DNA of 41,995 bases, taken from assembly GCA_031371245.1 (NCBI GenBank), contig JANMJF010000603.1:1-41995 (forward strand), read 5' to 3'. Positions 21,593 through 24,184 of this stretch are shown here, in pieces. Under the pieces are notes generated by a model. That model did no database searches. It had not been told where the DNA came from and was given only the letters and a program-made list of their open reading frames with translations. The position numbers were made by a program, and so were the translations under genes. Position 1 is the stretch's first letter. Every line of letters starts with the position of its first letter. The stretch comes from Pseudomonadota bacterium (GTDB lineage Bacteria > Pseudomonadota > Gammaproteobacteria > Ga0077536).

Positions 21593-24184
21593 GTGCGCCC
21601 CAACGTTAAGAACCTGACAGTCATCGCGGCGCTGCTCATGCTGTGTCCCTTGCTGGCCGAGGCGCATTCAGCAGGTGCGATGGTCATCGGTTGGCACGAC
21701 GGCTTCAATCATCCGTTGCACGGCTGGGATCATCTGCTCGCAATGCTCGCGGTCGGCTGGTGGGCATCACAGCAGCGTGGCGCCATGCGCTGGCGGCTGC
21801 CGGTGACTTTCGTCGCGGTGATGGCGGTAGGTGGCCTGGTCGGGTTCAGTGGTGCCGAGCTGCCCGGTGTGGAGTGGGTGATTACCGCGTCGGTACTGGT
21901 GTTCGCGGCGCTGGTGGTCAGTCGTACCCGCTTGCGGCCGGACACCATGATGTCGCTGGTTGGGTTCTTTGCTTTCTTCCACGGCTTCGCCCATGGCCAG
22001 GAATTGCCGGGTGCGGCCAATCTCGTGATGTTCGGCGCAGGCTTCCTGCTTGCGACATTGTTATTGCACGGTGCGGGATTCCTGACGGCGCGCGCGCTGC
22101 CTTTCGCACTGGCCTGCCTGGTCAGCACGACGACGATCGCGGCGCCTGTGTCGTCCACGGCCAGCGCTGGCGGACCGAAGATCAATGAGGATGACGCGGC
22201 GCGACTGCCGGAAATTATCGTCACCGGTCGCAGCGATTCCCAGGTCGGCATCGCGCAATCGGCCTCCCAGGGCAACGTCGGTGCGGCCGAGCTTCAGTAC
22301 CGGCCACTGGTGCGTCCCGGTGAGTTATTGGAAGCGGTGCCCGGTCTCATCGTCAGTCAGCATAGTGGTGAGGGTAAGGCCAACCAGTATTACCTGCGTG
22401 GCTTCAATCTCGATCACGGCACCGACTTCCTCACGCAGATAGACGGTGTGCCCGTCAATCTCGCCACCCATGCGCACGGTCAGGGTTGGACGGACACCGG
22501 CTTTCTCATCCCGGAGTTGGTGCGCACCATCAACTATCAGAAGGGCGTGTACTACGCCGAGAACGGTGACTTCTCCAGTGCCGGCGCGGCCAATATTCAA
22601 TACGTGAACGAGTTGCCGGCCAGCCTCGCCTCTTTTGAAGGCGGCAATCTCGATTTCTATCGCGGTCTTTATGCCTCGTCGCGCGCGCTCGGTGAAGGTA
22701 CTCTGCTCTATGCGATGGAGGGCGAGTACAACGACGGCCCATGGCAGCGCGGCGACCATTACCGCAAGGCCAACGGCGTGCTGCGCTACAGCCAGGAACA
22801 GGGCGAGGCCGGCTGGTCGGTGACTTTCATGGGCTACAAAGCCGATTGGGATTCGACCGATCAAATCGCCCAGCGCGCCGTCGAGCGCGGCGACATCGAT
22901 CGTTTCGGTCTCATCGATCCGTCCGATGGTGGCGACAGCCAGCGCTACAGTCTGACGGGCGAATGGCATCGGCGCGGCGCGGCCAGCGCGACCAAGGTCA
23001 TGGCCTATGGCTATTACTATGATCTCGATCTCTATTCGAACTTCACCTATGTGCTGGCAGACCCGGTGCACGGTGATCAGTTCGAACAACCCGACCAGCG
23101 CGCAGTGTCCGGATTCAAGATGGCGCACACGTTTTTTCATGCCCTGGGTGGCGCCGCTGCCGAAACCACCTTTGGTGTGCAGAACCGCAACGATGTGATC
23201 AAGAACGGGCTATTCCTCACCCAGCGCCGCGCCCGGCACGGCACGGTGCGCGAGGACAACACCTTAGAATCCAGCATCTCGCCCTATGTCGAGAACACGA
23301 CGCGCTGGACAGAGTGGCTGCGCAGCACGGCCGGCGTGCGCTTCGATGCTTTTCGCTTGGATGTCGCGAGCGATCGCGCCGCCAACAGCGGCGCGCGCTG
23401 GGACACCATTGTCAGTCCCAAGGGCGGCATCGTGCTCGGACCATGGGCTGCAACCGAGCTGTATTTGAACGCCGGTCTCGGCTTCCATAGCAATGACGGA
23501 CGCGGCGTAAACACTGTGGTCGACCCCAACACCGGCACCGCCGTCGATCGCGCCGTGCCACTGGTCCGCACCTATGGCGCGGAAGTCGGCGTGCGCACCA
23601 CCTGGCTACCAGGATTGCAAAGCACCGTGGCGTTATGGGGTCTGGATAGCGATTCCGAACTGATATTCGTCGGCGATGCCGGCACCACTGAGGCCGGACG
23701 CCCCAGTCGTCGTTACGGGCTTGAGTTTGCCAACTACTATGCGGTGACCGAATGGCTCAAGCTCGACGCCGACTTAAGCTTCTCGAAGTCGCGCTTCCGC
23801 CAACACGCGCTAGAAGGCGACCACATCCCCGGCTCGGTCGAGACCGTCATCGCAGCCGGTGCCACGGTGCACGATTTGCATGGCTTCTTCGGCGCATTGC
23901 GGCTGCGCTACTTCGGGCCGCGCCCGCTCGTTGAAGACGATAGCGTACGTTCTGCAGAAACCTTGCTGCTGAGTGCGCAACTCGGTTATCAAGTGAACAA
24001 GACCTGGAAAATCGTCGCCGATGTATTCAATCTGCTCGATCGAAAAGACAGTGCCATCGACTATTATTATCCGTCACGCCTGCCCGGCGAAGCGCCGGGG
24101 CCTGATGAGGGCGGCTATAACGACATCCACTTTCATCCGGTCGAGCCGCTCAGCTTTCGGCTCGGTGTGAGTGCGCAATTTTGA
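21593..24184 (+). CDS. HupE/UreJ-family metal permease fused in frame to a TonB-dependent outer-membrane receptor
   Basis: Likely GTG 21593 gives MRPNVKNLTVIAALLMLCPLLAEA|HSAGAMVIGWHDGFNHPLHGWDHLLAMLAVGWWA...FFHGFAHGQELP, which are HupE/UreJ signatures. It continues without stop or frame change through ...ALPFALACLVSTTTIAAPVSSTASAGGPK... into a TBDR plug (LPEIIVTGRS...NQYYLRGFNLDHGTDFLTQIDGVPVNL) and a barrel ending ...LSFRLGVSAQF (terminal Phe). The track start at 21545 is also possible. Confidence 0.85.
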   Translation: MRPNVKNLTVIAALLMLCPLLAEAHSAGAMVIGWHDGFNHPLHGWDHLLAMLAVGWWASQQRGAMRWRLPVTFVAVMAVGGLVGFSGAELPGVEWVITASVLVFAALVVSRTRLRPDTMMSLVGFFAFFHGFAHGQELPGAANLVMFGAGFLLATLLLHGAGFLTARALPFALACLVSTTTIAAPVSSTASAGGPKINEDDAARLPEIIVTGRSDSQVGIAQSASQGNVGAAELQYRPLVRPGELLEAVPGLIVSQHSGEGKANQYYLRGFNLDHGTDFLTQIDGVPVNLATHAHGQGWTDTGFLIPELVRTINYQKGVYYAENGDFSSAGAANIQYVNELPASLASFEGGNLDFYRGLYASSRALGEGTLLYAMEGEYNDGPWQRGDHYRKANGVLRYSQEQGEAGWSVTFMGYKADWDSTDQIAQRAVERGDIDRFGLIDPSDGGDSQRYSLTGEWHRRGAASATKVMAYGYYYDLDLYSNFTYVLADPVHGDQFEQPDQRAVSGFKMAHTFFHALGGAAAETTFGVQNRNDVIKNGLFLTQRRARHGTVREDNTLESSISPYVENTTRWTEWLRSTAGVRFDAFRLDVASDRAANSGARWDTIVSPKGGIVLGPWAATELYLNAGLGFHSNDGRGVNTVVDPNTGTAVDRAVPLVRTYGAEVGVRTTWLPGLQSTVALWGLDSDSELIFVGDAGTTEAGRPSRRYGLEFANYYAVTEWLKLDADLSFSKSRFRQHALEGDHIPGSVETVIAAGATVHDLHGFFGALRLRYFGPRPLVEDDSVRSAETLLLSAQLGYQVNKTWKIVADVFNLLDRKDSAIDYYYPSRLPGEAPGPDEGGYNDIHFHPVEPLSFRLGVSAQF

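Follow-up and report, generated by a model that had tools for sequence, protein, structure and literature searches.

A HupE/UreJ permease and a TonB-dependent receptor in one reading frame: a putative bacterial polyprotein serving two membranes

TonB-dependent receptors and their inner-membrane partners are normally encoded by separate genes and targeted by different routes. The gene described here, a single uninterrupted open reading frame (ORF) at 21545..24184 (+) of contig JANMJF010000603.1 from a gammaproteobacterium (the whole stretch of 41,995 nucleotides that was analysed is referred to as the window), encodes a HupE/UreJ metal permease followed by a complete TonB-dependent receptor. 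No stop codon or change of frame separates the two, just as a preliminary description of this DNA had stated, and all of the motifs quoted there were found. Both parts are ordinary members of known families, and it is their combination that is undescribed in the literature found: our search met no paper on a fusion of HupE with a TonB-dependent receptor, and databases annotate the combination automatically. The architecture had also been called unusual, which is true of the literature searched but not of sequence databases, where it proved to be common.

The closest described relatives of the first half are the HupE/UreJ nickel and cobalt permeases (PF04955), among them HupE of Rhizobium leguminosarum and of Synechocystis, which share with it a signal peptide exposing a histidine, the motifs HPxxGxDH and FHGxxHGxE and the predicted pattern of helices; the HPxxGxDH signature of the first helix and the histidine-rich motif of the fourth transmembrane helix (TM4) are the hallmark of the family (PMC7689651). 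Stand-alone members differ in being only about 190-200 amino acids (aa) long and in ending with a basic loop and a Gly/Ala-rich TM6, whereas in the window protein this end is swapped for a short signal-peptide-like helix and a receptor of about 670 aa. The second half is orthologous to TonB-dependent transporters of NikR regulons, which are candidate nickel receptors from comparative genomics and are 48-77% identical to it. Those receptors are encoded next to nikR and GTATGA-N15-TCATAC boxes, urease or hupE genes, and their signal peptide is N-terminal, whereas the window gene has neither a NikR box nor a nikR neighbour and the signal peptide of its receptor is internal. Among nickel TonB-dependent transporters, FrpB4 of H. 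pylori has reportedly been studied experimentally. A HupE-type permease joined to an extracytoplasmic metal-handling module, with histidine as the N-terminal residue behind the signal peptide, is known from the ‘anglerase’ permeases Ang-1/Ang-2-HupE/UreJ-2 (PMC12537917). The likeness to the window protein lies in the fusion of such a permease to an extra module and in the N-terminal histidine; however, the anglerase permeases belong to a different family (PF13795), their additional domain is a soluble one at the N-terminus for which no cleavage has been proposed, and they lack a fused outer-membrane component.

The closest known mechanistic precedent may be the FbcH precursor of Bradyrhizobium japonicum, which is said to yield cytochromes b and c1 when it is cleaved at a signal peptide in its interior (in work attributed to Thony-Meyer et al. 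1991). As is proposed for the window protein, one cistron encodes a polytopic inner-membrane protein at the N-terminus and, behind an internal signal peptide, a C-terminal protein that is exported. The difference is that both FbcH products stay in one inner-membrane complex and that their processing has been demonstrated, whereas the products of the window gene would part to two membranes after a processing that we infer. Our reading is that signal peptidase I probably cuts the product of the window gene, a polyprotein, into a permease of the inner membrane and a receptor of the outer one, with nickel as the most likely metal.

The ORF comprises 879 aa when counted from its first ATG, and this numbering is used throughout. 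The GTG codon at 21593 (V17) is the likely start, because GAGG lies 7 nt upstream of it and because the 95%-identical homologue P0001 (863 aa) has been called from the same position. Along the ORF follow a signal peptide, the HupE/UreJ permease, a signal-peptide-like sixth helix, a TonB-box-like segment, the plug and a 22-strand barrel ending in Phe (table 1). The motifs recovered in this order are AEA↓HSAG, GFNHPLHGWDH, FFHGFAHGQE, R-ALPFALACLV-STTTIAAPVSSTASA↓GG, LPEIIVTGRS, NQYYLRGFNLDHGTDF and ...GVSAQF, arrows marking cleavage sites. Pfam assigns aa 30-195 to HupE_UreJ (PF04955; E = 5.9e-46, 156.7 bits against a cut-off of 23, profile positions 2-167 of 179) and aa 241-348 to Plug (PF07715; E = 3.5e-11). 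The N-terminal signal peptide has a mean of 1.9 Lys and Arg residues in its n-region and a hydropathy of 2.1 in its h-region, and its removal would leave His41 as the mature N-terminus. In an alignment of 49 homologues, the permease residues H56, P57, G60, D62, H63, H146, H150 and E153 are invariant, and the receptor half has about 200 invariant columns along with the putative TonB box and the terminal Phe. F879 itself, the C-terminal aromatic residue recognized as the signal of the β-barrel assembly machinery (BAM), is nearly invariant. The segment LPEIIVTG, which we take to be a TonB box by its likeness to known ones, has the consensus L-P/S-E-V/I-V-V-T-G/E in fused and unfused homologues alike.

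Table 1. Features of the fused gene and its leader in the window, and of related loci in other genomes (L numbers, loci; P numbers, homologous proteins).
Feature	Position	Strand	Basis or remark
Leader motif GCATCCATTTC...CGTAGC, 35-62 nt upstream of the GTG	21531..21558	+	only leader segment in common with L081, L083 and L084; not in more distant homologues
Probable N-terminal Sec signal peptide, V17-A40 (MRPNVKN-LTVIAALLMLCPLL-AEA↓H)	21593..21664	+	sequence, GAGG, start of P0001
HupE/UreJ core, mature N-terminus and TM1-TM5, aa 41-180; HPLHGWDH in TM1, FHGFAHGQE in TM4	21665..22084	+	PF04955, AlphaFold2 helices, invariant residues
TM6/putative internal signal peptide, aa 181-208; n-region TAR, h-region ALPFALACLV, c-region STTTIA↓AP or ASA↓GG 9 residues on	22085..22168	+	junction alignment, site statistics, positive-inside pattern
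Variable acidic linker, aa 209-220, predicted disordered	22169..22204	+	pLDDT <50; length and sequence differ among homologues
TonB-box-like LPEIIVTG, aa 221-228	22205..22228	+	position kept in fused and unfused homologues
Plug, aa 229-350, with conserved His-rich motifs SQHSGEG, NLDHGTD and HAHGQG	22229..22594	+	PF07715 (E = 3.5e-11), invariant columns, AlphaFold2
22-strand β-barrel, aa 351-879, ending in Phe, and stop codon	22595..24184	+	AlphaFold2 strands, Foldseek, PF00593 in homologues
NikR-type operators	L019, L049, L051, L065 and a further ten loci, 18-354 nt upstream of where the unfused receptor ORF was called to start		
CopC-containing cluster	L005 3209-6178; L006 9206-13019; L008 8920-13078		Nitrosomonas and Methylococcales

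The fusion is real and recurs far beyond chance. A search of 5.8 billion proteins returned, among the best 120 matches listed, 112 with the combination PF04955+PF07715+PF00593 (coverage 94-100%, identity 54-95%); since the same architecture recurs so often, it is no assembly error, which answers in the affirmative a check on recurrence that the preliminary description had proposed. The fused clusters come mainly from Methylococcales, Nitrosomonas and Burkholderiales, with Methylomicrobium lacus, Methylicorpusculum oleiharenae, Methylotuvimicrobium, Methylobacter, Methylomonas and Methyloglobulus among the named sources. In a scan of GTDB species representatives, from which the best 80 loci were retained, 13 loci carry the fused gene and 67 an unfused orthologue of the receptor half. 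The former belong to Methylococcales (among them the complete genome CP024202 and that of M. buryatense 5G; the orthologue of M. buryatense spans 5947-8562 of L010), to a metagenome-assembled genome (MAG) of Nitrosomonas, to Burkholderiales MAGs and to a few MAGs with taxonomic labels that resemble binning errors; the latter are spread over Oxalobacteraceae, other beta- and alphaproteobacteria, Verrucomicrobia, Acidobacteria and others.

The orientation of the junction can be predicted from hydropathy and from the charge bias in the 49-sequence alignment. Loops 1, 3 and 5 carry on average 1.6, 2.2 and 1.0 Lys and Arg residues and no acidic ones, while the mature N-terminus and loops 2 and 4 have about 0 Lys and Arg residues and do contain acidic ones. 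Both hydropathy and this positive-inside pattern fit a protein which, after removal of the signal peptide at AEA↓H41, has its N-terminus outside, six spans and its C-terminus outside. The even number of helices, already counted in the preliminary description, together with the charge pattern thus would place the junction in the periplasm, and the sixth span would therefore run from the cytoplasm outwards, as a signal peptide does. A periplasmic C-terminus seems native to the HupE family, because stand-alone members (P0130, P0211, P0217 and the gene in L020) end directly after a sixth, Gly/Ala-rich helix that is preceded by a basic loop. In fused proteins the Pfam HupE match ends at profile position 157-167 of 179, the window protein being without the last 12 positions, which is consistent with a replacement of the native loop and TM6 by the signal-peptide-like segment.

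The layout of the junction is shared by the window protein and the 120 matches: TM5 (GFxxATLLLHGAG) is followed by a turn of three residues that includes a nearly invariant Arg, a brief hydrophobic stretch, about five polar residues ending in A/V-x-A, then Gln, Glu or Asp, a variable acidic or polar linker and L-P-E-V-V-V-T-G. Among the 89 fused homologues in which the site could be parsed, position -1 is Ala in 86, position -3 is Ala or Val in 78 and position +1 is Gln, Glu or Asp in 80; the h-region measures about 11-13 residues, and nearly all of these proteins have the site exactly 21 residues past the TM5 motif. It is also kept in 19 of 19 fused loci for which DNA was examined, including the tree outliers L009, L012 and L017. 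At the level of the family, the internal segment has the n-h-c organization of a signal peptide, with positions -3 and -1 taken by small residues and without Pro at +1. The N-terminal signal peptides of unfused orthologues (...ACTICNLATA↓QDD, ...ACAICNAAQA↓QDS, ...GTSALHA↓QNA) occupy the same alignment columns, so the sixth helix matches the signal peptide of the receptor in position and in features; for these orthologues we relied on visual inspection and alignment, a regular-expression caller having been too strict (24 of 71 called). The signal-peptide-like character of the sixth helix, as first noticed, is thus borne out. The cleavage site proposed at the same time, ASA↓GG (after A208), obeys the -3/-1 rule and is possible, but the site aligned with that of the family is STTTIA↓AP, after A199 and with Thr at -3, which lies 9 residues earlier. 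Either could serve in the window protein, and both are weaker than the family consensus.

Taken together, these features suggest the following course of events. The polytopic HupE part would enter the inner membrane co-translationally, together with the signal peptide at its N-terminus, so that the mature N-terminal His would face the periplasm. The sixth hydrophobic segment would then cross from the cytoplasm to the periplasm like a Sec signal peptide and present the conserved A/V-x-A on the periplasmic side, where signal peptidase I would cut; the segment itself would remain on HupE and, as its sixth and C-terminal helix, substitute for the TM6 native to stand-alone members. The mature TonB-dependent receptor would be freed into the periplasm and inserted into the outer membrane by BAM, so that one cistron would supply, in a 1:1 ratio, a permease in the inner membrane and a receptor in the outer membrane for the same metal. 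The invariant columns, the putative TonB box and the terminal Phe show constraint on the receptor half, which should for this reason be exported and arrive in the outer membrane; what we infer is the actual cleavage, the localization of both halves and the substrate.

An AlphaFold2 model built on the 49 homologues (predicted local distance difference test score, pLDDT, 80; predicted template modelling score, pTM, 0.73) contains a full plug and a 22-strand barrel that ends at F879, with pLDDT mostly 80-97 in the barrel, helices at residues 61-75, 81-101, 109-126, 132-153 and 160-193, and values below 50 at junction residues 189-225. The best Foldseek matches of the C-terminal half are PqqU (9c4o) and YncD (6v81), both with E of about 1e-31, 18% identity and TM-scores of 0.82-0.83 when normalized to the target; FecA, FhuA, OprC and BtuB are further neighbours, and the E values for PqqU, YncD, FecA, OprC and BtuB range from 1e-31 to 1e-23. 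A sequence search of the PDB revealed no close relative of either half, the receptor half matching no PDB chain at E<=0.001, and NCBIfam gave only sub-threshold matches to generic TonB-receptor subfamilies, with no curated subfamily of TonB-dependent transporters above its cut-off.

As for the substrate, the neighbourhoods of the 80 loci provide the main clues. NikR is encoded next to the unfused receptor in 18-19 loci, and GTATGA-N15-TCATAC boxes (<=2 mismatches) precede the receptor in 14 of the 19 NikR-linked ones, so that this receptor clade appears to belong to NikR regulons. Urease genes occur in four loci, and in L007 ureC...ureG, a urea transporter gene and a carbonic anhydrase gene are followed by the fused gene. 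Separate, adjacent genes for the receptor and then HupE are found in L020 (5761-8605) and in L088 (5001-8581, with two hupE copies), and a HupE_UreJ_2 gene, of the type that encodes the anglerase permeases, lies directly downstream of unfused receptor orthologues in 14 loci; the neighbourhoods show that receptors of this clade and permeases of the HupE type are conserved functional partners. Because receptor orthologues adjoin NikR and its boxes, urease and separate hupE genes, we favour nickel, as the ion or a small chelate, and give it about an even chance; copper is a live alternative in the methanotrophic and nitrifying relatives and has roughly a one-in-five standing in our judgement, and cobalt, the least supported, has about half of that.

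Several observations weigh against the polyprotein reading or against nickel as its substrate. The window protein and its 95% relative have a degraded form of the canonical site, in which TIA↓AP has Thr at -3 and ASA↓GG is far from the h-region; relatives that are 73-83% identical have ALA↓QS, AVA↓DD, AAA↓EE and ATA↓AQ, and sites closer to the consensus are present in P0002-P0005. AlphaFold2 draws residues 160-193 as one long helix of low confidence rather than as a TM5-TM6 hairpin, with no co-evolutionary signal for TM6, and cleavage and localization are, for every member of the family, predictions from sequence. As to the metal, no NikR box (GTATGA-N14-17-TCATAC, <=2 mismatches) was detected upstream of any fused gene, the window leader included; the loci with NikR and those with HupE_UreJ_2 do not overlap; and the 42-kb window contains no nickel, cobalt, copper or B12 genes. 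Finally, the cluster that follows the fused gene in three loci (table 1) encodes a thioredoxin-like protein, a BNR/sialidase-like protein, CopC, an unannotated lipoprotein and a HupE_UreJ_2 protein with an N-terminal periplasmic domain.

A fused gene at the head of such a cluster hints at copper, and the rival that survives best, though we hold it to be unlikely, is the same polyprotein with copper as its substrate, which the main host groups would use for their copper-dependent methane and ammonia monooxygenases. Fused genes are indeed concentrated in Methylococcales and Nitrosomonas, methanotrophs and nitrifiers having a high demand for copper, and head an apparent CopC-containing operon in L005, L006 and L008; in addition, OprC copper transporters are among the structural neighbours, and N-terminal domains of HupE/UreJ-2 proteins bind Cu2+ (PMC12537917). 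However, experimentally studied HupE/UreJ proteins of PF04955 are nickel or cobalt permeases (PMC7689651), the orthologous receptors appear to belong to NikR regulons, and the nearest tree neighbour of the fused Nitrosomonas gene in L005 is that in L007, which follows a urease operon; nor were any methanotroph or nitrifier genes seen in the 42-kb window.

Cobalt or corrinoid uptake under the control of a B12 riboswitch in the leader, which the preliminary description had favoured on account of a B12-like leader, is in our opinion improbable. Some HupE members do carry cobalt under B12-riboswitch control in cyanobacteria (PMC7689651), and the strings GCCGGTGAA...GTCGGCAC and AGCCAGGA in the leader recall cobalamin riboswitches. 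Nevertheless, Rfam gave no match anywhere in the window at the gathering threshold, nothing cobalamin-like (cobalamin, AdoCbl or AdoCbl-variant) at E<=10 in 21000-21800, and no riboswitch at the gathering threshold in 15 loci with fused homologues. The minimum free energy of the leader is not below that of shuffled sequence (z = -0.45), and in an alignment of six leaders only that of the 95% relative could be aligned to it, with the exception of the short motif at 21531-21558. The genes around the fused gene in the window are likewise silent on B12 and cobalt, NCBIfam BtuB models score 17-23 bits against cut-offs of 600-836 (23 against 600 in one comparison), and the comparative context favours nickel, so neither the B12-like leader nor cobalt uptake is upheld. 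The short leader motif was considered as a riboswitch in its own right and rejected, as it has no Rfam match and its leader folds no better than shuffles; it is possibly a promoter or an operator, i.e. the site of a regulator.

About as improbable is a receptor that is never cleaved and stays tethered to HupE, either as a complex across the envelope or as a non-exported inner-membrane protein. The suboptimal site of the window protein itself would agree with this, as would the 30-52 residues between the A-x-A site and the plug motif in homologues, a stretch which when fully extended approaches the width of the periplasm. On the other hand, the conservation of A/V-x-A↓Q at a fixed register amid a variable region is hard to explain without recognition by signal peptidase, the window protein has only about 20 residues from the h-region to the TonB box, too short to span the periplasm and present the TonB box, and the barrel retains all hallmarks of a BAM substrate, terminal Phe included.

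We give still less credence to a separate synthesis of the receptor by internal translation initiation just before the sixth helix, which would make the fusion only apparent at the protein level. Some homologues do have a Met, Val or Leu codon before the conserved Arg (GIMTARL...), and a start there would yield a textbook signal peptide; yet in the 19 fused genes the codon is not limited to ATG, GTG or TTG (TGC, CTG, ATA, TTA, CTC, TTC, ATC and GTC occur), and no Shine-Dalgarno-like element is evident in the window. An assembly or sequencing artefact, or a pseudogene formed by the loss of a stop codon between two genes, can practically be dismissed, as the same colinear fusion exists in more than 100 independent clusters, with complete genomes among the sources (M. 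buryatense 5G and Methylomicrobium sp. wino1, CP024202), homologues align at the junction and conserve it, and separate genes run receptor then hupE, the reverse of the fused order, so that simple loss of a stop codon does not account for the fusion.

The history of the polyprotein gene seems to be more complex than a single event. In a neighbour-joining tree of the receptor domain, which is a rough guide without support values, most fused genes form one clade that also includes the unfused L011, L021 and L086-L089, while three fused genes branch elsewhere, which suggests that fusion or fission events happened more than once. In an independent fusion, the partner of HupE is a small barrel of the outer membrane (P0122, 413 aa; P0271, 434 aa), which has PF27733 and weak PF13557 (MetA-like) matches, a junction AVA↓QG and the end ...FAVQFRF, and which occurs on its own as proteins of about 250 aa. 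A large family of Methylococcales, here called HupE-X (400-505 aa; P0127, P0128, P0131, P0133, P0140), combines a HupE domain and the same A-x-A junction with a tail of about 250 aa that is poorly conserved and of low complexity, has no Pfam match and contains one conserved motif, YYPDINH(T/S)PGxxLLSNGVGLTSPP. One such gene (L008, 4559-5971, +) lies directly upstream of a fused HupE-receptor gene, and P0121 is a tandem HupE-X-HupE. The small-barrel fusion and the HupE-X family suggest a general design principle.

On balance, and somewhat more tentatively than for the window gene itself, we lean towards regarding the fused proteins as a widespread but undescribed class of bacterial two-membrane polyproteins, in which the permease would lead its cognate receptor along the co-translational path of the signal recognition particle (SRP) and SecYEG, with TM6 acting first as signal peptide of the receptor and, once cut, as the last transmembrane helix of the permease. 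In the most extreme variant, which is possible, some fused members would stay uncleaved and physically bridge both membranes. If the polyprotein reading is true, the gene is a natural ‘Rosetta stone’ that gives an inner-membrane partner and a class of metal to an uncharacterized but widespread clade of receptors, and a rare bacterial instance of processing of an internal signal peptide by signal peptidase; we know of no earlier case in which such processing divides the products between two membranes. It would also be a natural test of the delivery of a β-barrel to BAM after co-translational targeting of the SRP type, and a handle on the acquisition of trace metals (nickel, possibly copper) in methanotrophs and nitrifiers, organisms of environmental importance that are open to genetic work.

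Some minor observations concern the surroundings and relatives of the fused gene. Its neighbours in the window encode a glutathione S-transferase, a SnoaL-like protein and a PAS-GGDEF protein, the last of which (24230-26476, -) converges on it. The rest of the window has a flavour of lipid or hydrocarbon metabolism unrelated to metal uptake, with genes for a DMFase-beta-like protein (2320-4917), a patatin/DUF3336 lipase (35031-36575), a flavin monooxygenase of the Baeyer-Villiger type (36836-38458) and a WS/DGAT wax-ester synthase (39662-41140). Genes for luciferase-like monooxygenases are found near fused genes in three otherwise different contexts (L010, 4205-5440; L082, 2455-3672; the P0005 contig), and small genes with a PepSY domain occur just downstream of fused genes in L003 (6872-7396) and L082 (8992-9501). 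The urease cluster upstream of the fused gene in L007 contains an Rfam match to 5_ureB_sRNA (120 bits; 800-1086, -). In MAG loci of the Acidobacteria type (L024, L027, L031, L037, L039, L045, L060 and L066), the receptor orthologues are longer at the N-terminus, where about 130-280 extra aa precede the plug, with the conserved string ...VTVTGK.TFTNLAD.

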